From the NCBI GenBank assembly GCA_965222075.1, contig OZ244937.1, forward strand, positions 2,752,001 to 2,816,000: DNA of 64,000 bases, written 5' to 3'. The first letter of the stretch is position 1. Every line of letters begins with the position of its first letter. The notes beneath the pieces are model-generated. The model saw nothing but the letters and a program-made list of their open reading frames with translations. It had not been told where the DNA came from and made no database searches. The stretch is from Candidatus Latescibacterota bacterium (GTDB taxonomy: Bacteria; Latescibacterota; UBA2968; GCA-2709665). The position numbers and the translations under genes are program-made. Shown piece after piece: positions 2,517-13,035 of this stretch.

Positions 2517-4904
2517 ATGATGCTGCGTAACTATCTGATTGTGGCGATTCGGAATCTGCTGAAGAATAGAGTCTTGTCCATGATCAACATTCTTGGGCTG
2601 GGAGCGAGCATGTCGATTTGCATGCTGATCATCTTGTTCGTGTCATACCAGCAGTCGTCGGACGCGTGGCACAAGAAGGCAGATCGTATCTACCGCATCA
2701 CCTGCGACTATAGTTCGCTTGCTGGTAGTATTCGCCCCTTCGCAACGACACCTGCGAGCCTTGCTCCGCTGCTGCAAGAGGCCTACCCGGAGGTGGAGGT
2801 GGCTACACGGGTACGCATCTTCCGCGGCTCGGCGGGCCCTCGCGGCGAGCAGATCGACGTGTCCGGCCTTTATGCCGAGCCGTCGTTTTTCGAGGTATTC
2901 GACTTCACGCTCGCGGAAGGGGATGCCGCCACCTCGCTTTCCGAGCCCAATTCCATCCTGCTTTCGCGGCACCAGGCGGTCGCATTCTTTGGCGATTCCA
3001 GTCCGCTGGGCAAGACAGTGACGATCGGACAAACGCCATACACGGTAAAGGGCGTCCTGGCCGATCAGGCAGGGCCCAGTTATCTGCGGTTTCAGGTTCT
3101 GGTGTCGTTCGCGACCCTGGCATCGTCCAACCGACGGGCCCCGTACTGGTACGAAGACATGAACGACACATACACCTTCCTGGTCCTGCGAGAGGGTAGC
3201 CGCCCCCCGGCTCTGGAAGCGCACCTGATGCAGATCATCCGTGACCACTATCCTCCCAGGATGAACTCACGGCTGGAGAGGGCGTATGTCCAATTGTTGA
3301 CCGACATCAGCCTGGGCGTCATGATGGTTAACCAGCTTAGCTGGATCGTTCCGGGCTCGGTTGTCTATTTTGTGAGTGTCCTGGCCATCCTGACACTGGC
3401 GGTGGCGTGCTACAATTACACCAACCTGACGGTGGCCAGGGCAATGGCACGGGCGCAAGAGGTGGCGATTCGGAAAGTGGTAGGTGCATATCGGGGACAG
3501 ATCGCCTGCCAGATCTTGATAGAGTCGATTCTAACGGCACTGCTGGGAATGGTCCTTGCCTCATTGCTGCTCTTATGGCTCATCCCCAGTTTCAATGCGT
3601 TGTTCTTTACATCGCTTTTTCCATCGGCCCGCATCAGGATCGGCGTTCTCGAACACGGGACGGTCTATCTCAAGCTCCTCGGCTTCAGCGCAGGGGTAGG
3701 ACTTCTCGCGGGCACCTACCCTGCACTTCGTCTTTCCCGATTCGTCCCAGCCCTGGTCTTGAAGGGAGGACGTTTCACGAAGGGTCGGGCCTGGTCATTC
3801 AAACAGGTGCTTGTGATGGGGCAGCTTGGATTGTCGCTATTCTTCGTCCTCTCGACCCTGTTCGTATACCAGCAGTTCCGCTACCTGGTGTCGTCCGACT
3901 ATGGATTCGATCACGAAAATATCGTGAACGTGAGGCTTCAGGGGGTGCGCTACGACGTGTTCCGGCAGGCGATGGAGCAGTCGCCTGCGGTGGAGCACAT
4001 TTCAGGCGCCTCGCAGCTCCTGATGCAGGGGGAGCAGGAGCCAGTCCTGGTGAAGGTCGGCGGGGGAAACCCTCAGACGATCAACCAGTTGAAGGTGGAC
4101 CGCAATTTTGTTACGAACCTGAAGCTCAAGTTGCTTGCAGGCCGCAATTTCGATCAGCCATCGGAGATCCACACCGGCGCGCTTCTGAATAGCACCGCTG
4201 CTCGGCGTCTGGGGCTTGGGGACGGGGAGCAGGCGATAGGCCGAATCCTGACCGTGGGGAAGAGCACTGAACTCACCGTCGTGGGGATTCTGGACGACTT
4301 CCAGACATACGGCATGGGCACGGACTTCGATCCGATCATCCTGCGCTGGGACCCGGCGGGCATAAATTGGGCGAACGTGCGAGTGTTACCAGGCCAGATG
4401 TCTCAGGCGGTTGCGGACCTCGAACGGATCTGGCCGAAGCTTGGAAGCCCATGGAAAGTGGAGCATGCTCCGTTCACGACGCAAATCCGTGCAGGAATGC
4501 TCGGCGGGTTCTATTCAGACGCATTGCGCATCATTGCTCTGATCGCCACTTTCGTGGTGCTCCTGGCCTTGCTCGGAGTCCTGGGAATGGCGATTCACAC
4601 GACGGAAACGCAGGTCAAAGAAGTCGCCATACGCAAGGTTCTGGGAGCGAGTCCCTGGCAGATCGCAGTGCTGCTATCAAAGGGCTTCTTGATAATGTTT
4701 GCCCTGGCGGCCCTGCTGTCGGCGCCCGCGGCATGGTTCGCAAACCACCTCTGGCTCAACCAGTTCCCCTTCCGGGTCACGATGAACCCGTGGCTGTTCG
4801 GCAGCGCTGTTGCCGCGATGATGGCGATTATTCTCGCGGTGGTTGGGTCGCAGACGCTTCGCGCGGCGACTTCGGACCCGGTAAAGGCGCTCAGGAACCA
4901 GTGA
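2517..4904 (+). CDS. ABC transporter permease, duplicated MacB-periplasmic/FtsX type
   Basis: MLRNYLIVAIRNLLKN start, two EVAIRKV(V/L)GA motifs, multiple TM segments, C-terminal DPVKALR. Confidence 0.9.
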   Translation: MMLRNYLIVAIRNLLKNRVLSMINILGLGASMSICMLIILFVSYQQSSDAWHKKADRIYRITCDYSSLAGSIRPFATTPASLAPLLQEAYPEVEVATRVRIFRGSAGPRGEQIDVSGLYAEPSFFEVFDFTLAEGDAATSLSEPNSILLSRHQAVAFFGDSSPLGKTVTIGQTPYTVKGVLADQAGPSYLRFQVLVSFATLASSNRRAPYWYEDMNDTYTFLVLREGSRPPALEAHLMQIIRDHYPPRMNSRLERAYVQLLTDISLGVMMVNQLSWIVPGSVVYFVSVLAILTLAVACYNYTNLTVARAMARAQEVAIRKVVGAYRGQIACQILIESILTALLGMVLASLLLLWLIPSFNALFFTSLFPSARIRIGVLEHGTVYLKLLGFSAGVGLLAGTYPALRLSRFVPALVLKGGRFTKGRAWSFKQVLVMGQLGLSLFFVLSTLFVYQQFRYLVSSDYGFDHENIVNVRLQGVRYDVFRQAMEQSPAVEHISGASQLLMQGEQEPVLVKVGGGNPQTINQLKVDRNFVTNLKLKLLAGRNFDQPSEIHTGALLNSTAARRLGLGDGEQAIGRILTVGKSTELTVVGILDDFQTYGMGTDFDPIILRWDPAGINWANVRVLPGQMSQAVADLERIWPKLGSPWKVEHAPFTTQIRAGMLGGFYSDALRIIALIATFVVLLALLGVLGMAIHTTETQVKEVAIRKVLGASPWQIAVLLSKGFLIMFALAALLSAPAAWFANHLWLNQFPFRVTMNPWLFGSAVAAMMAIILAVVGSQTLRAATSDPVKALRNQ

Positions 4905-5027
4905 ACTGCATAGCATCCTGTGAAATTCTCCAGTAACGAGCGTTTTCAGCGCATCATTGATCCTCCAGAAAAGCGAACGATCATGGCATGCTATTTCTGG
5001 GACAGAACACCAGGTCACCGGAGCATA

Positions 5028-5693
5028 ATGATGAAATTTACGCTTTTATTTTTGATCCTATATCTGGGTACAACACCTGTTTTTGCACAGGAAACGCAAG
5101 CGGATTCAACGCGGAGTGAACGGCCGACATTTTCGATGACGCCTACCTGAGTGGGCTGACCTGGGGAAGGCGCACCGCTTCGGGGAAGCGGCATTCATAC
5201 GAAATTTACACTTTCAGGGCGGTATGTAGATACGCCAATGGACCGCCCGCAGTGGCGGTTTACCGCCAATTACAGCCTCCATCAACGCTTGCAAGTTGGG
5301 GTTGAGGTGAATCCAAAAGCGAAAGAGGCAGGACCTCTTGTGACGCTGTTTCTGTTAACCGAGACCAGGACGCGTCCGGCGCTCTTTTTGGGCACGAGCT
5401 CAGATCGAATCGGTTCGCCGGCGGGCGAGCAGTCTTACTTCGCCACCATAAGCAAATATATACCCCGGTTGCGCACTTCTTTTTACGGCAGTTTGAATTA
5501 TTCGGAATGGGATGGGAAGTTCAATATTCCCTTTGGCGCGGGGGTTGAATTGGGTAAAGGCTTTTCACTTCGACCGATGTATGATGGCGACCGGGGGCAT
5601 GTGATGCTGAATTATTTCACCACGCACTACGGTGTCAGTTTGATGTATGTGTGGCTTGAAACCCCGGGTATTTCGTTTTCTCTCGGATTTTAA
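5028..5693 (+). CDS. Putative outer-membrane beta-barrel selenoprotein with UxxU motif (YjbH-like barrel)
   Basis: GGAG RBS and ATG 5028, signal peptide MMKFTLLFLILYLGTTPVFA. In-frame TGA at 5148-5150 and 5157-5159 (T-U-V-G-U-P); the frame stays open into ORF 5238..5693, which ends in the beta-signal-like GISFSLGF. Confidence 0.75.
5175..5191 (+). promoter_or_regulatory. Candidate bacterial SECIS hairpin
   Basis: Stem CCGCTT/AAGCGG with loop CGGGG. The loop starts about 21 nt after the second UGA and about 30 nt after the first. Confidence 0.5.
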
Positions 5694-5840: not shown

Positions 5841-7208
5841 ATGCACGTCACCAGAAGGCAGTTTCTGAAGTCGGCGGCCGCCGTCACCGTGGGATTCCAA
5901 GGGCTGCAGCGCCACGTGGTCTGGGGGGAGGCCCCCAGGGAGGGGATCGCCGCGGGCTACGGCCCCATGCGACCGGACCCGGGCGGGATCGTCGACCTGC
6001 CCGCGGGCTTCACCTATCGGGTGATCTCCCGCACCGGCGTCGAGATGGACGATGGCCTCCGGGTGCCGGGGCTGCCCGACGCCATGGCCGCCTTTCCCGG
6101 AGCGGAGGGACGGACCCTGCTGGTCTGCAACCACGAGCTCACGGCGGGGGCCCGCAAGGTCGGCGCCTTCGGCGATGAGAACGAGCGTCTCGGCAAGCTG
6201 CCGCGGGAGCGGTTCTACGACTGGGGCCGTAGCGACCCGCCCCAGGGAGGGACGACGACCTTCGTGCTCGGCCCCGCCGGTGAGCTGGAGAAACATTACC
6301 TCAGCCTCGCCGGCACCGTGCGCAACTGCGCCGGCGGCCTCACCCCCTGGGGAAGCTGGATCACCTGCGAGGAGACGACCCAGCGCGCCGACGACAACCA
6401 CGAACAGGACCACGGGTACAACTTCGAGGTCCCGGTGGGCCCGGCCACGGGGCCGGTGGAGCCAGTGGCCCTGAAGGCGATGGGCCGCTTCAACCACGAG
6501 GCCGTCGCCGTCCATCCGGCGACGGGCATCGTCTATCAGACCGAGGACGCCGGCGACGGTCTCATCTACCGCTACCTGCCCGACGAGCCCGGACGTCTCG
6601 CGGCCGGTGGCCGGCTGCAGGCGCTCATGGCCCTCGACCGGCCGAGCCTGAACACGGACAACCACAAGTCGCAGACCGTCGCTCCCGGGGACCGCCTGGC
6701 CACGGCCTGGGTCGACATGGAGGACGTGGAGTCCCCGAACGATGACCTGCGCGCCCAGGGGTTCGACAAGGGCGCCGCCCGCTTCGCCCGCGGCGAGGGC
6801 ATGTGGTACGGCCGGGGGGCCGTCTACTTCGCATGCACCAGCGGCGGCAAGGAAAAGAAGGGGCAGGTGTGGCGCTACGAGCCGAGCCCCTATGAGGGGA
6901 CGCCCGACGAGACGGCCTCGCCCGGGACCCTGGAGCTGTTCATCGAGCCCAACGACGGCAACCTGGTGGAGAACTGCGACAACCTGACGGTGGCGCCCTG
7001 GGGCGACCTCGTGCTCTGCGAGGACGGCGGTGGGGACAACCACTTGGTGGGGGTCACGCCGGAGGGGCGGATCTACAAGCTCGGCCGCAACGCCTTCAAC
7101 GAGTCCGAGTTCGCCGGCGCCACGTTCTCGCCCGACGGCCGCACGCTTTACGCCAACATCCAGTCGCCCGGGATCACCCTGGCCATCACCGGGCCCTGGA
7201 CGGGCTGA
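5841..7208 (+). CDS. phoX: PhoX-family (DUF839) alkaline phosphatase, Tat-exported
   Basis: TRRQFLK Tat motif; LVCNHE, NCAGGLTPWGSWITCEE, MGRFNHEA, FARGEG, DNL...LCEDG and SEFAGATFSPDG motifs. Confidence 0.85.
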   Translation: MHVTRRQFLKSAAAVTVGFQGLQRHVVWGEAPREGIAAGYGPMRPDPGGIVDLPAGFTYRVISRTGVEMDDGLRVPGLPDAMAAFPGAEGRTLLVCNHELTAGARKVGAFGDENERLGKLPRERFYDWGRSDPPQGGTTTFVLGPAGELEKHYLSLAGTVRNCAGGLTPWGSWITCEETTQRADDNHEQDHGYNFEVPVGPATGPVEPVALKAMGRFNHEAVAVHPATGIVYQTEDAGDGLIYRYLPDEPGRLAAGGRLQALMALDRPSLNTDNHKSQTVAPGDRLATAWVDMEDVESPNDDLRAQGFDKGAARFARGEGMWYGRGAVYFACTSGGKEKKGQVWRYEPSPYEGTPDETASPGTLELFIEPNDGNLVENCDNLTVAPWGDLVLCEDGGGDNHLVGVTPEGRIYKLGRNAFNESEFAGATFSPDGRTLYANIQSPGITLAITGPWTG

Positions 7209-7452
7209 GCCGAGGCCTCAGTCGAGTCCCTGGCGCGGCTCGGCGCAGGTCACGGCTGATCGCGCTTGATCAGGTAGCGCAAACCGGCAGTTTGCAGCAC
7301 CCTCGCCGGGCTGTTGCGTTTTACGTACTAAGCGAGCCTTAACCCTTTAAAATCAAGCAAATGAAAGCCATGGCGGCCTGCAGAAATTGGGGCATGGTCA
7401 ACATCCAAATGCGCCATGTGAAGGTTGGGACCGTTCAATGATTTGCATCAAT

Positions 7453-7492: not shown

Positions 7493-8176
7493 ATGCGTTA
7501 TTGGACATTTTTATTCCTGATTGTTCTGGCAAGTCCGGCTGCGCTGACAGCTGAAACTCAGATTCCCGATAGGGCGCTTTGCAGTGTCTGTGCATTAAAG
7601 GGCGGCGAGACAGAGTTGGAAAAGGTCAAGGCCCACTCGGAATATGAGGGCAAGGCATACTACTTTTGTTCTGAAAACTGCAAAATGGAATTTGACTCAG
7701 ACCCCACGGCTTTTTTACCACCGGTATTTCCACGACCTGCACCAGCCTGCGTTGTTGAAACGCTGGAGGGCGGAGACAGGGCGTTGGGGGATTTTAAGGG
7801 CAAAGTTGTGCTCGTAGATTTCTGGGCAACCTGGTGCAAACCCTGTCTTGAAACAATGCCCCGGTTGCAAAAACTCTACAACGTTTATTCCGACAGGGGA
7901 TTGGACGTTTTGGGTGTGTCTATAGATGAAGACAAAGACCGGATTAAAAAGATCAAAAAGATGGTGGACAAAATGAATATTTCTTATCCCATCTTTGTAG
8001 ACGCGAAGCAGACGCCCGCCTGGCATCAGTTCAAAGTGAAAGCGATTCCTGCGATGTATCTTCTCAACAGAGAAAGCCAGATCGTAGCGCAGTGGACGGG
8101 AAAGATAGATTACGAGGAAGTGGAGAAGGAAGTTTTGAGACAGTTGAAAAAAAAGCTCGAAGTTGAAGGGCCATAA
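7493..8176 (+). CDS. Exported YHS-domain / TlpA-family thiol-disulfide oxidoreductase fusion
   Basis: Signal peptide; CSVC...YEGKAYYFCSENCKMEFDSDP (YHS/TRASH); DFKGKVVLVDFWATWCKPC...P and AIP cis-Pro loop (TlpA/ResA). Confidence 0.85.
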   Translation: MRYWTFLFLIVLASPAALTAETQIPDRALCSVCALKGGETELEKVKAHSEYEGKAYYFCSENCKMEFDSDPTAFLPPVFPRPAPACVVETLEGGDRALGDFKGKVVLVDFWATWCKPCLETMPRLQKLYNVYSDRGLDVLGVSIDEDKDRIKKIKKMVDKMNISYPIFVDAKQTPAWHQFKVKAIPAMYLLNRESQIVAQWTGKIDYEEVEKEVLRQLKKKLEVEGP

Positions 8177-9889: not shown

Positions 9890-11959
9890 ATGAAAGAGTT
9901 ATACAGTTGGGTGCGGTGGTTTCGAGAATTGGCGGAAAAAATTTCGGAAGGTGACAAAGCATATCTGATTGAAAAAGCCAGAGAAGTGGAGTGGGGAAAG
10001 ACCCCCACCTTGCTTCGATATGGCGATGAGGCCATCAATCCGTTTTCTTTTTTTTATTTTTTGGCTTCAAAAAACACCAGTAAGCAACTCAAACCCGTGT
10101 TCCACAGCGTTAGTAGTGTATTTGAAATTGAACCGCTGCTATATATGGACGTAGATGAACGCTTTGTCTTTCCCGTTCCCAATTTCAATATACTTTTCTA
10201 TGATGAAACAAACTCCAATATGGATCTGCTCTGGCGTTTGTTCAGGCAGGCGGCAGTAAAGGACGAGCCAAAGATAGACCCGGATGAATTCAAGAAAGTT
10301 CTTGATATTAAGGGAGTTGGGATTGCAAAATTGACGCAAACCTTGTTTTTGACAAACCCCGAATACTTCCTGCCCATGGATAATGTAACCAAGGATTTGT
10401 GGAAAGTTCTGGACTTGCCGACGCTGTCAGAAATAGAAAATGATGGCTATGAGACATATCGATCGTTTCTTGAGAAGTTAAAGGAAGCATTTCCAGAGTG
10501 CCAGCCGTATGAAATCAATATGTTCTTATATCTGCAAAACTCCGGAAAAATAAAGGTGAACGATAATTTCTATCAAATTAGCACTCAGGTATATGGAGAC
10601 AAGAAGGGTGATCATTGGGACGACTTCAAGTACAACAATTGGGTTTATACCGGCGGACCGGGGGGTAAATCATGGGGGGAACCGGGAAAGTATCCTTTGG
10701 AAGAACCTGCACCGGGAGATATTATCCTGGTCAGAACAGGAATAACAAAAGGAAAGGCTATTGGCATCGTTCAGAAAAACGATTATGTCGAGTCGGGGAT
10801 AAACAAAGACAGCAGGATTCATGTCTTGTGGATAAACAAGGAGCAAACAGACTTATCCAGGAAAACGGAACAGGTTGGTTTTGCGAAGACTAAATCGGAC
10901 TCGAAGACATATTTGGCATTTGAGAATACGGATGCCTATAAGCCTTCCTTCGAGTTGATTGAAAAAATGAAAGGAAATTCGATTGGGAACGAACCAGAAA
11001 CCGATACCATGAAATATCTACAACCTTTGAATCAGATACTTAGATCCCGCGATCCGATCCAGGATACGGGCGAGGATCTCTTTCTGCGCGAGGGCGAAAT
11101 CGAGCGCCTGATCGCTCTGCTTCGGCGCAAGAAGAATCTGGTCCTCCAGGGGCCGCCGGGGACGGGAAAAACCTATTTGGCGCAGGGTTTGGCTCGGTTG
11201 GTGGTGGGAGAAAAGTCGAAAAACCGCATCGAGACCGTTCAGTTCCACCAGTCTTATGGTTACGAGGATTTCGTCCAGGGATATCGGCCCACCGGGGATG
11301 GCGGATTCGAGCTGAAGGATGGTCCTTTTCTGCGCTTCTGCGAACGCGCCCAGCCGAGCCCGGATTGCCCCTTCGTGCTGGTGATCGACGAGATCAACCG
11401 CGGCAACCTGAGCCGGATCTTCGGTGAGCTGTTGATGCTGATCGAGGCCGACAAGCGCAAGCCTGAGTGGGCAGTGCAGATGGCCTATTCGGACGAAGAC
11501 ACGACCCCGTTCCACATTCCGCCGAATCTGTACCTGATCGGAACCATGAACACCGCGGACCGTTCTCTGGCTCTGGTCGATTACGCTCTGCGCCGCCGAT
11601 TCGTTTTTCACACAGTCGAGCCCGCCTTCGGAAATGAGCGATTCGCCCGCCACCTGGAAGAGCGCGGCGTGCCGGAAGAGTTTCAGGAGCGCATCCGAAA
11701 CCGCCTGGGCGCTTTGAACGAGACCATTCGGGAAGATCCGAGGCTCGGCGAGGGGTTCCAGATCGGGCACAGCTATTTCTGCGATCCACCCGGGGAGCTG
11801 CACGAAGAGGAAGATTCAAGCGGGTGGGAGGAGTGGTACGAGGACGTGATCCGCTACGAGATCGAGCCCCTTCTCGCCGAGTACTGGTTCGACGATTCCG
11901 AAAAAGCCAAGACAGAAGTCAAGAAACTGCTTGCTACTCCTGCCGATAACGCTCCATGA
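9890..11959 (+). CDS. mcrB: McrB-family AAA+ GTPase (type IV restriction)
   Basis: GPPGTGKT, VQFHQSYGYEDFV, VIDEINRGN, GTMNTADRS, DYALRRRF, IGHSYF. Confidence 0.92.
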   Translation: MKELYSWVRWFRELAEKISEGDKAYLIEKAREVEWGKTPTLLRYGDEAINPFSFFYFLASKNTSKQLKPVFHSVSSVFEIEPLLYMDVDERFVFPVPNFNILFYDETNSNMDLLWRLFRQAAVKDEPKIDPDEFKKVLDIKGVGIAKLTQTLFLTNPEYFLPMDNVTKDLWKVLDLPTLSEIENDGYETYRSFLEKLKEAFPECQPYEINMFLYLQNSGKIKVNDNFYQISTQVYGDKKGDHWDDFKYNNWVYTGGPGGKSWGEPGKYPLEEPAPGDIILVRTGITKGKAIGIVQKNDYVESGINKDSRIHVLWINKEQTDLSRKTEQVGFAKTKSDSKTYLAFENTDAYKPSFELIEKMKGNSIGNEPETDTMKYLQPLNQILRSRDPIQDTGEDLFLREGEIERLIALLRRKKNLVLQGPPGTGKTYLAQGLARLVVGEKSKNRIETVQFHQSYGYEDFVQGYRPTGDGGFELKDGPFLRFCERAQPSPDCPFVLVIDEINRGNLSRIFGELLMLIEADKRKPEWAVQMAYSDEDTTPFHIPPNLYLIGTMNTADRSLALVDYALRRRFVFHTVEPAFGNERFARHLEERGVPEEFQERIRNRLGALNETIREDPRLGEGFQIGHSYFCDPPGELHEEEDSSGWEEWYEDVIRYEIEPLLAEYWFDDSEKAKTEVKKLLATPADNAP

Positions 11960-13035
11960 AGATTCCGCCCATGAATCTCTACTACCTGCTCTGCTATGCC
12001 TGGGACCGGCTGGAATCCCGAAACTATGTGGATGTGCGGGCCGTCGGTGAAGAGCTTCCTCAGGACCTCTTCGCACGCCTGCTCCGGGCGGGCTTCGAGC
12101 AACTTCTGAAACGCGGCCTTGATCGCGGTTACCGGGAGCACACCGAGGATACGCGCCGGCCGCGGGGCAAAATCGACTTCGCATCAACCGCCCGGCGCGC
12201 GTTACGGATCCGAGGTCAAGTGCATGTGCGCTACGAGAATCTGAGCCGCGACGTGCTCCACAATCGGATCATCAAGACGACGATGCGTCGCCTGGGGACC
12301 GACCCGGACCTGGATCGCGGCCTGAGCGGAGACCTCGAGCGCCTGGCGCGGCGCATTCCCGAAGTCGCCGAAGTGGAGTTGCGCGACGATCTGTTCGATC
12401 GCGTGCAGATTCACCGCAACAACGCCGGCTACGGCTTTCTGCTCAATCTTTGTCGGCTGGTGAGTCGCAACCTTATCCCGGAACACCGCTCCGGGAGATT
12501 CCGCTTTCGAGACTTCACTGGAAACGATATGGAGATGGGCCGGCTCTTCGAAGACTTCGTGCGCAATTTCCTGCGCATCGAGCGACGGGCTCTTGGAGTG
12601 CTCGGGAGGCACAAGCAGATCGAGTGGGACGCTTCCCTGGAGGGCAACGCAATCCGCCTCCCCGTCATGGAGGCGGATATCTTCGTTCCGAACGTCCGCG
12701 GGCGCAGCGCCATCCTCGAGACCAAGTGCGTATCCGTGCGTTTCTCTTCGAGGCAAGGTGGACCCGCTTCACTGAAGAGCGACCATCTCTATCAGCTCTT
12801 CGCCTACCTGGCAAATCACGCGCGCTGCTATCCGAACGAGCCGCCAGTCATCGGCGTGCTGCTCTATGCGACCGACGGCGAGAGTTTCGGTTATCGTTAC
12901 CGCATCCACGATCATCCACTGTGGGTGCGGTCCCTCGACCTCGCACAACCCTGGCAAGAGATCCGCGAGGAATTGCTCGGATTGGCAGCCGAGTTGGAGC
13001 AGCAGACATCCGTGACCGCGTCGGCTGTGACTTGA
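11956..13035 (+). CDS. mcrC: McrC-family nuclease subunit
   Basis: IP.MNLYYLLCYAW start, LFEDFVRNF, ADI...ILETK, HLYQLFAYL; ATGA overlap with mcrB. Confidence 0.9.
   Translation: MKIPPMNLYYLLCYAWDRLESRNYVDVRAVGEELPQDLFARLLRAGFEQLLKRGLDRGYREHTEDTRRPRGKIDFASTARRALRIRGQVHVRYENLSRDVLHNRIIKTTMRRLGTDPDLDRGLSGDLERLARRIPEVAEVELRDDLFDRVQIHRNNAGYGFLLNLCRLVSRNLIPEHRSGRFRFRDFTGNDMEMGRLFEDFVRNFLRIERRALGVLGRHKQIEWDASLEGNAIRLPVMEADIFVPNVRGRSAILETKCVSVRFSSRQGGPASLKSDHLYQLFAYLANHARCYPNEPPVIGVLLYATDGESFGYRYRIHDHPLWVRSLDLAQPWQEIREELLGLAAELEQQTSVTASAVT

Follow-up and report, generated by a model that had tools for sequence, protein, structure and literature searches.

In a 64,000-nt window of the genome of Candidatus Latescibacterota bacterium (GenBank assembly GCA_965222075.1, contig OZ244937.1, positions 2,752,001 to 2,816,000 of the forward strand; the window is this whole stretch, and its first letter is position 1 below), open reading frame (ORF) calling with genetic code table 11 places two ORFs, 4920..5150 and 5238..5693, on the + strand and in one shared frame. 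Are these two separate coding units, or a single gene with stop codons that are translated as selenocysteine (Sec, U)? A sequence-only reading of this DNA had proposed that both ORFs belong to one frame, broken only by two TGA codons, which encodes an outer-membrane beta-barrel with a UxxU motif, i.e. two Sec three codons apart. Read-through translation of 5028-5693 with TGA as U confirmed the single frame: it gives 221 residues ending in ...ISFSLGF, followed by TAA (5691-5693), and the only stops inside it are TGA codon 41 (5148-5150) and TGA codon 44 (5157-5159). We conclude with high confidence that 5028-5693 is one gene for a protein with two selenocysteines, which is predicted to be secreted. 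The explanation that fits best overall, and which we regard as probable, is a secreted barrel protein with two Sec residues, one selenocysteine insertion sequence (SECIS) and a metal-related role linked to TlpA/YHS modules.

One reading frame through two conserved UGA codons

The coding sequence (5028..5693, + strand) comprises 221 codons plus TAA and runs through two UGA codons, and the same frame with two TGAs is present in all relatives that span the sites. On the + strand, the first UGA (5148..5150) and the second UGA (5157..5159) are predicted to be read as U41 and U44. Their context, ACC TGA GTG GGC TGA CCT, then translates as T-U-V-G-U-P. Both codons are invariantly TGA in relatives and correspond to Cys in distant homologues. 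Upstream, a Shine-Dalgarno-like GGAG (5020..5023, + strand), read from the sequence, lies 4 nt before ATG 5028 and 7 nt before ATG 5031. A predicted Sec-type (secretory) signal peptide, MMKFTLLFLILYLGTTPVFA, occupies 5028..5087 on the + strand; it was recognized by eye and by a hydrophobicity heuristic, with cleavage guessed after VFA.

To follow the two sites across genomes, we scanned one genome per species. The search pattern was matched by 183 relatives, and 80 loci were kept for reading. TGA was found at both sites in 78 of these 80 loci (75 by script, L088 by eye, and L096 and L115), and the remaining two are without the region owing to a contig edge or a deletion. Record titles assign the loci to about ten lineages in total, among them Latescibacterota, Poribacteria, Acidobacteriota (Thermoanaerobaculia, Holophagales), Eisenbacteria, Calditrichia, Krumholzibacteriia, Gemmatimonadota, Planctomycetota, Fibrobacteraceae and a deltaproteobacterial metagenome-assembled genome (MAG); the names are those of the titles, and MAG labels may be imprecise. 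Within the phylum of the window, 35 of 168 genomes yield a match, and two TGAs are present in each of the 30 rows that extend over both sites; a weak match in G139 (residues 1-45, E 1.4e-4) is without stops. A sample of 401 Acidobacteriota genomes yielded 32 with matches, including a subfamily that scores only 116-166 bits, and again 32 of 32 site-spanning rows carry two TGAs. Neither site has a TGG or TGY codon in any main-family locus that was read, and there is no Cys form among the approximately 110 main-family genes read. Chance would not nearly account for such retention of both TGAs.

Conservation is seen before as well as after the TGAs. Relatives share the peptide [TA]P[TS]-U-x-[GA]-U-PGEGAPLRGSG at the sites, and the signal-peptide region that precedes it varies freely. 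In 77 distinct segments of 93 nt, the 12 codons after the second TGA show 28, 2 and 297 non-majority letters at codon positions 1, 2 and 3, and the four codons before the first TGA show 63, 42 and 153. The stretch between the second TGA and ATG 5238 (5160-5237) is likewise kept as protein among the relatives. This third-position bias indicates purifying selection on the read-through frame, well upstream of the ATG at which ORF calling lets the second unit begin. Furthermore, 35 of 78 distinct family genes use TGA as their own terminator, directly after the C-terminal Phe. Genome-wide reassignment of TGA is thereby ruled out, and the two internal TGAs must be recoded locally.

A search of approximately 5.8 billion protein clusters (90% identity) returned 696 relatives at E ≤ 0.01. 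Among the best 120, which were listed, all but two are pieces of 121-166 aa that start after the second TGA, so that gene callers cut this family short throughout. The two long entries, P0014 and P0052, show Trp at both sites, as does P0214. This looked like the very result that the sequence-only reading had named as speaking against Sec; however, the DNA of locus L085, whose N-terminus is identical to that of P0052, has TGA at both sites, and we therefore attribute the Trp residues to gene callers translating TGA as Trp. On short contigs, metagenome gene callers can change to genetic code table 4. The homologue P0132 reads P-A-C-V-G-W-PGEG, where C...W may represent a CxxU form translated with table 4.

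Forms with Cys were found by another route. A profile built from 63 mature sequences matched 227 of 1.84 billion representatives at E ≤ 0.001, of which 18 were fetched. Six of them consist of a signal peptide, 'APTCAGCAGEAR' and the barrel; in five, the same CxxC is preceded by two or three YHS/TRASH domains (YHS at 47-65 bits in four of these five fusions), and one carries VPSCALCPS; PTCAGCAGEAR is also seen in distant homologues. In the alignment both Cys residues fall on U41 and U44 (P0149, P0153, P0161, P0158, P0181 and P0204). At the DNA level we located 20 Armatimonadota loci of the Cys form and confirmed TGY codons in 19. Thus relatives have TGA at both sites and distant ones Cys at both, with conservation before as well as after the stops, as the earlier proposal of a Sec pair had anticipated. 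A word-indexed protein search with residues 28-80 gave no match; it missed even P0052 and is uninformative on Cys forms.

The window itself was compared with four public sequencing runs. Neither TGA is among the listed differences, which comprise only the best-supported ones, and this check is weaker than the cross-genome comparison. Contig X3 record 22 spans 5135-5398 with no difference to the window. RNA-library contigs of a relative that is approximately 92% identical cover 5012-5156 and 5161-5692, none of them bridging the second TGA; they may stem from DNA carry-over and are not counted as evidence of expression. Summed over metagenome contigs from three DNA runs, depth rises several-fold to a peak that coincides exactly with 5139-5192, from the TGAs to the hairpin described below, and this nucleotide segment is common to many different organisms in those samples. 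Loose contig ends before 5157 read ...ACCTGAAGCGCG, the TGA-bearing form of loci titled Poribacteria. The runs that hold the stretch include sponge, marine and coral-reef metagenomes.

Two genomes contain decaying copies, which show what real pseudogenes of this family look like. The copy in G144 (L014/L047) has an extra upstream TAA and changes (GAG AGT AGC) that break the hairpin, and in G142 (L035/L072) a deletion has fused the barrel gene with the end of the thioredoxin gene.

The SECIS-like hairpin and the selenocysteine machinery

Downstream of the two TGAs lies a SECIS-like hairpin (5175..5191, + strand) with the stem 5175-5181/5185-5191 and a GGG loop at 5182-5184. Its letters are CCGCTT-CGGGG-AAGCGG, forming a 7-bp stem and the GGG loop if C5181 pairs with G5185. 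It lies 30 nt after the first and 21 nt after the second TGA, and across the family these distances are 30-31 and 21-22 nt. RNAalifold and explicit pair counts agree on alignment columns 40-46/50-56, which correspond to 5175-5181/5185-5191 of the window. Over 77 sequences, 98.9% of the stem cells are paired. At synonymous third positions, pair 42:54 is GC in 50, AU in 12, GU in 12 and other in 3 sequences, and pair 45:51 is CG in 52, UA in 24 and other in 1.

The divergent Acidobacteriota subfamily, in which the peptide PGEG[MR][AG]V[RS]G stands in place of PGEGAPLRG, offers additional variation. With this subfamily added (51 sequences), compensatory changes occur in five of the seven pairs, and 96.4% of the cells are paired. 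Double changes are seen at 40:56 (CG 40, GC 8) and 43:53 (CG 41, GC 10); the counts for 42:54 are GC 28, GU 12 and AU 6, and those for 45:51 are CG 37 and UA 11. As a control we slid the 3′ partner by 1-3 columns, which left 30-66% of the cells paired vs 96.4%.

We compared the hairpin with the bacterial SECIS (bSECIS) model as given in the available text of the review PMC13188914: a loop of 3-9 nt with G in its first two positions, a stem of 4-16 bp, 16-37 nt from UGA to loop and a minimum free energy (MFE) of ≤ -7.5 kcal/mol, with the loop pattern N1-G-[G|U]-N-N2 in which N1 and N2 are paired (Fig. 2 legend). The loop in our 77 sequences is CGGGG in 64, CGUGG in 12 and CGGGA in 1, and the stem has 6-7 bp. 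The MFE of the 21-mer is ≤ -7.5 kcal/mol in 75 of 77 sequences, with a median of -12.2. Stem, loop pattern, spacing and MFE thus all agree with the model as it appears in that text. Since the spacing is in range for both UGAs, one hairpin can serve both. Covariation and the fit to the model bear out the SECIS-like hairpin of the sequence-only reading; its further idea of one hairpin per UGA did not hold, as pairing in the small upstream hairpin is not conserved. That second hairpin (5160-5162/5168-5170) is present as letters in the window, and in 35 of 77 sequences its pair 5162:5168 does not form (CG in 23, UA in 18). An alternative small helix that RNAalifold places around the second TGA shows no compensatory change.

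The Cys forms serve as a negative control. In 19 Cys-form genes the hairpin columns are paired in 56.4% of cells (75/133), and one of the 19 reaches -7.5 kcal/mol. The hairpin is therefore absent from the Cys forms, indicating that it travels with the TGAs and not with the protein family. A different arrangement is seen in two divergent fusion genes with the peptide PGEGRAVSGAG (L130:1975-2067 and L132:1969-2061, both on the - strand): in RNAfold, CCGCUU between their TGAs pairs with a downstream GAGCGG and encloses the second TGA. This pairing, known from these two sequences only, may be an alternative SECIS geometry.

The genome carries the machinery for Sec insertion, for which the earlier reading had pointed to selA, selB, selC and selD; all four are found. 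SelA scores 485 bits (C1:4481721-4482818), the SelB wing domain lies in a 653-aa ORF, SelD has one in-frame TGA of its own, and a tRNA-Sec is present. The genes for tRNA-Sec, the Sec-containing selD and selB stand side by side at C1:3959745-3962700, outside the window, and selA is located elsewhere. Of the genomes that bear the barrel gene, SelA was detected in 34 of 35 within the phylum and 9 of 10 outside it.

The predicted barrel and its TlpA/YHS partners

The beta-barrel domain (5205..5690, + strand; residues 60-221) was predicted with AlphaFold2 and compared by Foldseek; it has approximately 12 strands and a C-terminal Phe. AlphaFold2 on the alignment of 63 sequences gave a predicted local distance difference test (pLDDT) score of 79.9 and a predicted template modelling score (pTM) of 0.77, with strands over model residues 34-194. 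DSSP divides the approximately 12 strands into 13 elements, two of which are probably one bent strand. The first 30 residues of the model, which hold UxxU, are of low confidence. The leading Foldseek matches are all transmembrane barrels: FapF (E 4.6e-5), a designed 10-strand barrel, KdgM (template modelling score 0.56/0.62, root-mean-square deviation 4.2 Å over 184 columns), NanC, OEP21 and Omp33.

The C-terminus suits such a fold. Of 78 genes, 74 encode F as the last residue, 1 encodes W, 2 encode I and 1 encodes L, and a C-terminal aromatic residue is the beta-signal of outer-membrane barrels. As a heuristic sign of a signal peptide, an 11-residue window of mean Kyte-Doolittle hydropathy ≥ 1.9 with a start codon at most 14 codons before it is seen in 71 of 77 distinct upstream regions. 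By sequence alone the barrel has no recognizable family: P0001 matched nothing in Pfam and NCBIfam at E ≤ 1, the family profile had 0 matches among PDB sequences at E ≤ 10, and neither Pfam nor the PDB profile search gave a match to the KdgM/NanC porin family. ESM Atlas attached the automatic names DUF3570-like (0.98) and YjbH (0.95) to the 151-aa part; we treat these names as no more than leads, and Pfam does not bear them out. The fold prediction and the prevalence of Phe agree with the outer-membrane barrel ending in Phe that the initial reading had claimed, and on the strength of the model we consider it likely that the protein is an outer-membrane beta-barrel. The mature protein of approximately 200 residues is predicted to consist of a barrel of approximately 12 strands and a flexible N-terminal UxxU tail of approximately 30 residues.

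The barrel gene has a conserved partner. In the window this is 7493..8176 (+ strand), whose product has a signal peptide and a YHS domain rich in Cys, followed by a TlpA/ResA-like thioredoxin domain (WATWCKPC). Its table-11 ORF opens at 7451, and relatives start at ATG 7493. Pfam reports AhpC-TSA (8.5e-21), YHS (3.9e-10), Thioredoxin_8 and Redoxin; the NCBIfam ResA subfamily model gives 101 bits, which is under its cut-off. In 60 of 76 loci a YHS-TlpA-like gene with WATWCxPC is the next gene on the same strand, approximately 15 nt after the barrel stop, and a thioredoxin gene lies downstream of 14 of the 20 Cys-form loci.

The same modules also occur within one polypeptide. Five of ten genes of the divergent Acidobacteriota group encode, in frame, a Redoxin/AhpC-TSA domain, a linker and the UxxU-barrel, and in three of these five (L126, L128 and L133) a His-rich linker directly precedes UxxU. 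Another three of the ten encode a weak YHS-like domain followed by the UxxU-barrel. The modules are thus found in three architectures, namely as neighbouring genes, as a TlpA fusion and as a YHS fusion. Our main evidence for function is this recurrence of three modules in three arrangements, and it is quite likely that the barrel protein is functionally coupled to the TlpA/YHS modules. Neighbours and fusions thus bear on the diselenide or metal-binding site that the sequence-only reading had inferred.

Between the barrel gene and its partner the window contains a PhoX alkaline phosphatase gene (5841-7208, + strand) with a twin-arginine translocation (TAT) signal and a G+C content of approximately 0.70 vs approximately 0.52 in its neighbours. 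Since barrel and partner are adjacent in 60 of 76 other loci, PhoX looks like a recent insertion into the operon. An AAA_5 ATPase gene and a McrBC-family gene follow at 9890-13035 (+ strand) and look like a McrBC-type restriction system. Upstream of the barrel gene are a leucine-rich-repeat protein (574-2298) and a MacB/FtsX-type ABC permease (2517-4904). The McrBC-type, leucine-rich-repeat and ABC permease genes are not conserved beside the barrel gene in other genomes.

Possible role, alternatives and known systems

The following sequence of events would account for these results. Translation would start at ATG 5028 or 5031 and produce a cleavable signal peptide and a short linker. SelB with Sec-tRNA(Sec), held by the hairpin at 5175-5191, would then insert Sec at UGA 5148 and UGA 5157, one SECIS serving both to yield T-U-V-G-U-P, after which translation would continue to TAA 5691-5693. 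The even number of strands is predicted to leave the UxxU tail on the periplasmic side of the barrel, where the pair may work with a periplasmic thiol:disulfide oxidoreductase of the YHS-TlpA-like type, whether encoded next door or fused. We infer that the TlpA-like module keeps both selenols reduced in the oxidising periplasm and that a thiophilic metal, with Cu(I) as the first guess, is bound at the barrel mouth by the selenolate pair with the aid of YHS/TRASH or His-rich modules.

The preference for a metal rests on an analogy. With ScoI/CoxB, TlpA is a periplasmic reductase that keeps the metal-binding Cys pair of its partner reduced for copper uptake. Here, likewise, a TlpA-like domain neighbours or is fused to a C/UxxC/U pair and travels with YHS, although the partner is an outer-membrane barrel with selenols instead of an inner-membrane chaperone or oxidase subunit, and no copper enzyme is encoded near the barrel gene. 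Because of this analogy we place metal handling before pure redox chemistry, a preference that we would put at roughly even strength. More specifically, and more tentatively, the Sec-pair barrel could be a small channel that, with the selenolates at its periplasmic mouth, captures or gates a thiophilic metal (copper first, then mercury, silver or cadmium) as it crosses the outer membrane, serviced by a dedicated TlpA-type reductase and YHS/TRASH metallochaperone modules. Sec would on this reading be obligatory in the main family, which would point to a chemistry beyond that of thiols in the oxidising periplasm.

Among the alternatives, the one that survives best keeps the same double-Sec barrel and makes UxxU a catalytic redox centre (selenenylsulfide/diselenide), cycling against the TlpA-like reductase, in place of a metal site. 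Peroxides, disulfides or some oxidised compound at the outer membrane could, for example, be its substrates. We consider it rather unlikely. A thiol:disulfide oxidoreductase domain is indeed the constant companion in all three architectures, the main family is without a His-rich stretch beside the motif, and most known bacterial selenoproteins in the part of the PMC13188914 table that was available are redox proteins with UxxC or CxxU. However, YHS/TRASH domains are fused directly before the motif in Cys forms, and weakly so in some Sec forms, and the partner itself carries a Cys-rich YHS domain. The His-rich linkers immediately before UxxU in L126, L128 and L133 also fit a catalytic centre poorly, a disordered tail on a barrel would be an unusual setting for one, and TlpA-type reductases are known for preparing metal-binding Cys pairs.

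Far less probable is a read-through of the UGAs without selenocysteine, by near-cognate tRNA-Trp or a suppressor, with the hairpin as a stimulator of read-through. Database translations with W at both sites (P0014, P0052, P0214) and the lack of a SECIS in Rfam would suit it, as would the fact that selenium enters this locus solely through signs in the sequence. Yet the W forms are TGA in DNA (L085 vs P0052) and no locus read has TGG; the aligned homologues carry Cys, the standard counterpart of Sec; the hairpin conforms to the bSECIS model in every parameter; and the full Sec machinery is present in this genome. Hardly credible, finally, is a broken gene or a pair of products, consisting of a secreted peptide that ends at 5150 and a barrel fragment from 5238, for although table-11 ORF calling gives exactly this split and nearly all listed database entries are C-terminal pieces of 151-166 aa, the same two stops and purifying selection on both sides of them recur across about ten lineages, 5160-5237 is conserved as protein, the barrel fragment would be without a signal peptide, and truly decayed copies look different (an extra TAA and a damaged hairpin in G144, a deletion in G142).

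Several observations weigh against the double-Sec barrel with one SECIS and a TlpA/YHS-linked metal role. As regards the hairpin, Rfam detected three chance-level matches and no SECIS family in 5000-5400 (E ≤ 10); taken singly, the 63-66 nt of the window have another, longer structure as their minimum-energy fold; single-sequence energy z-scores span 0.01 to -3.3; and the divergent genes L130 and L132 are without the hairpin in the aligned columns. As regards the machinery, SelA was missed in the gene-bearing MAGs G094 (81% completeness) and G169, which are fragmentary, and overall 131 of the phylum's 168 genomes encode it, as do 5 of 5 Cys-form genomes. As SelA is common in these groups, including the Cys-form genomes, its co-occurrence with the barrel gene is uninformative as a discriminating test; it is consistent with Sec insertion but weak. 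The model leaves the placement of the UxxU tail relative to the barrel undefined (pLDDT < 50), and the homologues P0163 (A, S) and P0251 (T, W) are without the pair, so a barrel lacking it can exist. Approximately 16 of 76 loci, mostly titled Poribacteria, have no thioredoxin neighbour within 3 kb, five of them ending within 800 nt, and the YHS domain of the Acidobacteriota fusions is under the Pfam cut-off (E 2.7e-4 to 2e-3).

How does this family relate to what has been described? Table 1 of the 2026 review PMC13188914, in the portion available, counts 119 selenoprotein families. There, the UxxU entries are only Prx-like, HMA-type metal-binding and FmdB-family proteins, and the outer-membrane entries are only the GSU2204/MtrB-PioB barrel and the FCYXU TonB-dependent receptor. 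Neither the UxxU models (NF041115, TIGR02605, Prx-like PF00578) nor the outer-membrane selenoprotein models match P0001. Literature on bacterial UxxU, outer-membrane barrel or Poribacteria selenoproteins yielded, in the texts available, only two reviews (PMC13188914 and PMC9312934) and unrelated work, and supplementary tables could hold an unnamed candidate. The remark of the sequence-only reading that no characterised family resembles this one stands, with no Pfam, NCBIfam or literature record found. It appears to be a selenoprotein family and an architecture not described before, with Sec inserted by the mechanism that is standard in bacteria.

The known bacterial UxxU families share with it the two Sec three codons apart, which implies one downstream SECIS for two UGAs, and a predicted redox or soft-metal site. 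They belong to other folds and families, whereas here the pair sits on a disordered tail before an outer-membrane barrel and Sec is present in every main-family member read. The GSU2204 family (MtrB/PioB barrel, NF041027) and the FCYXU receptor (NF049945) likewise place Sec in an outer-membrane beta-barrel, but theirs is a single Sec in much larger, unrelated barrels without a sequence match to ours. SelL is a eukaryotic UxxU selenoprotein with a diselenide, a thioredoxin-like fold and a SECIS in the 3′ untranslated region. Its UxxU can form a diselenide, as the one described here might; the fold here is, however, a bacterial barrel, and the SECIS lies in frame. The small 12-stranded channels KdgM (4fqe), NanC (2wjr), FapF (5o68) and OEP21 (7bgh) share the predicted fold, at an identity of 8-14%; the barrel here is shorter (approximately 160 residues) and has no Pfam membership, and none of these channels has a C/UxxC/U tail.

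Discovery of bacterial selenoproteins leans on known domains and on close Sec/Cys pairs, and the barrel family has neither, which may explain why annotation cuts the gene into a stub and a headless barrel. The family adds a two-Sec member that is absent from Pfam, NCBIfam and the available part of the 119-family catalogue of 2026, puts a Sec pair on an outer-membrane protein and offers a natural example in which two UGAs 9 nt apart share a single SECIS. Re-annotation is due in Latescibacterota, Poribacteria, Acidobacteriota and relatives, and Trp at both sites in a database entry is best regarded as an artefact of translation. The three interchangeable architectures give a concrete and testable hypothesis of function. 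If the more tentative channel reading is true, this protein would be the founding member of an outer-membrane system that has so far gone unrecognised and occurs in many uncultured lineages of sea and soil.

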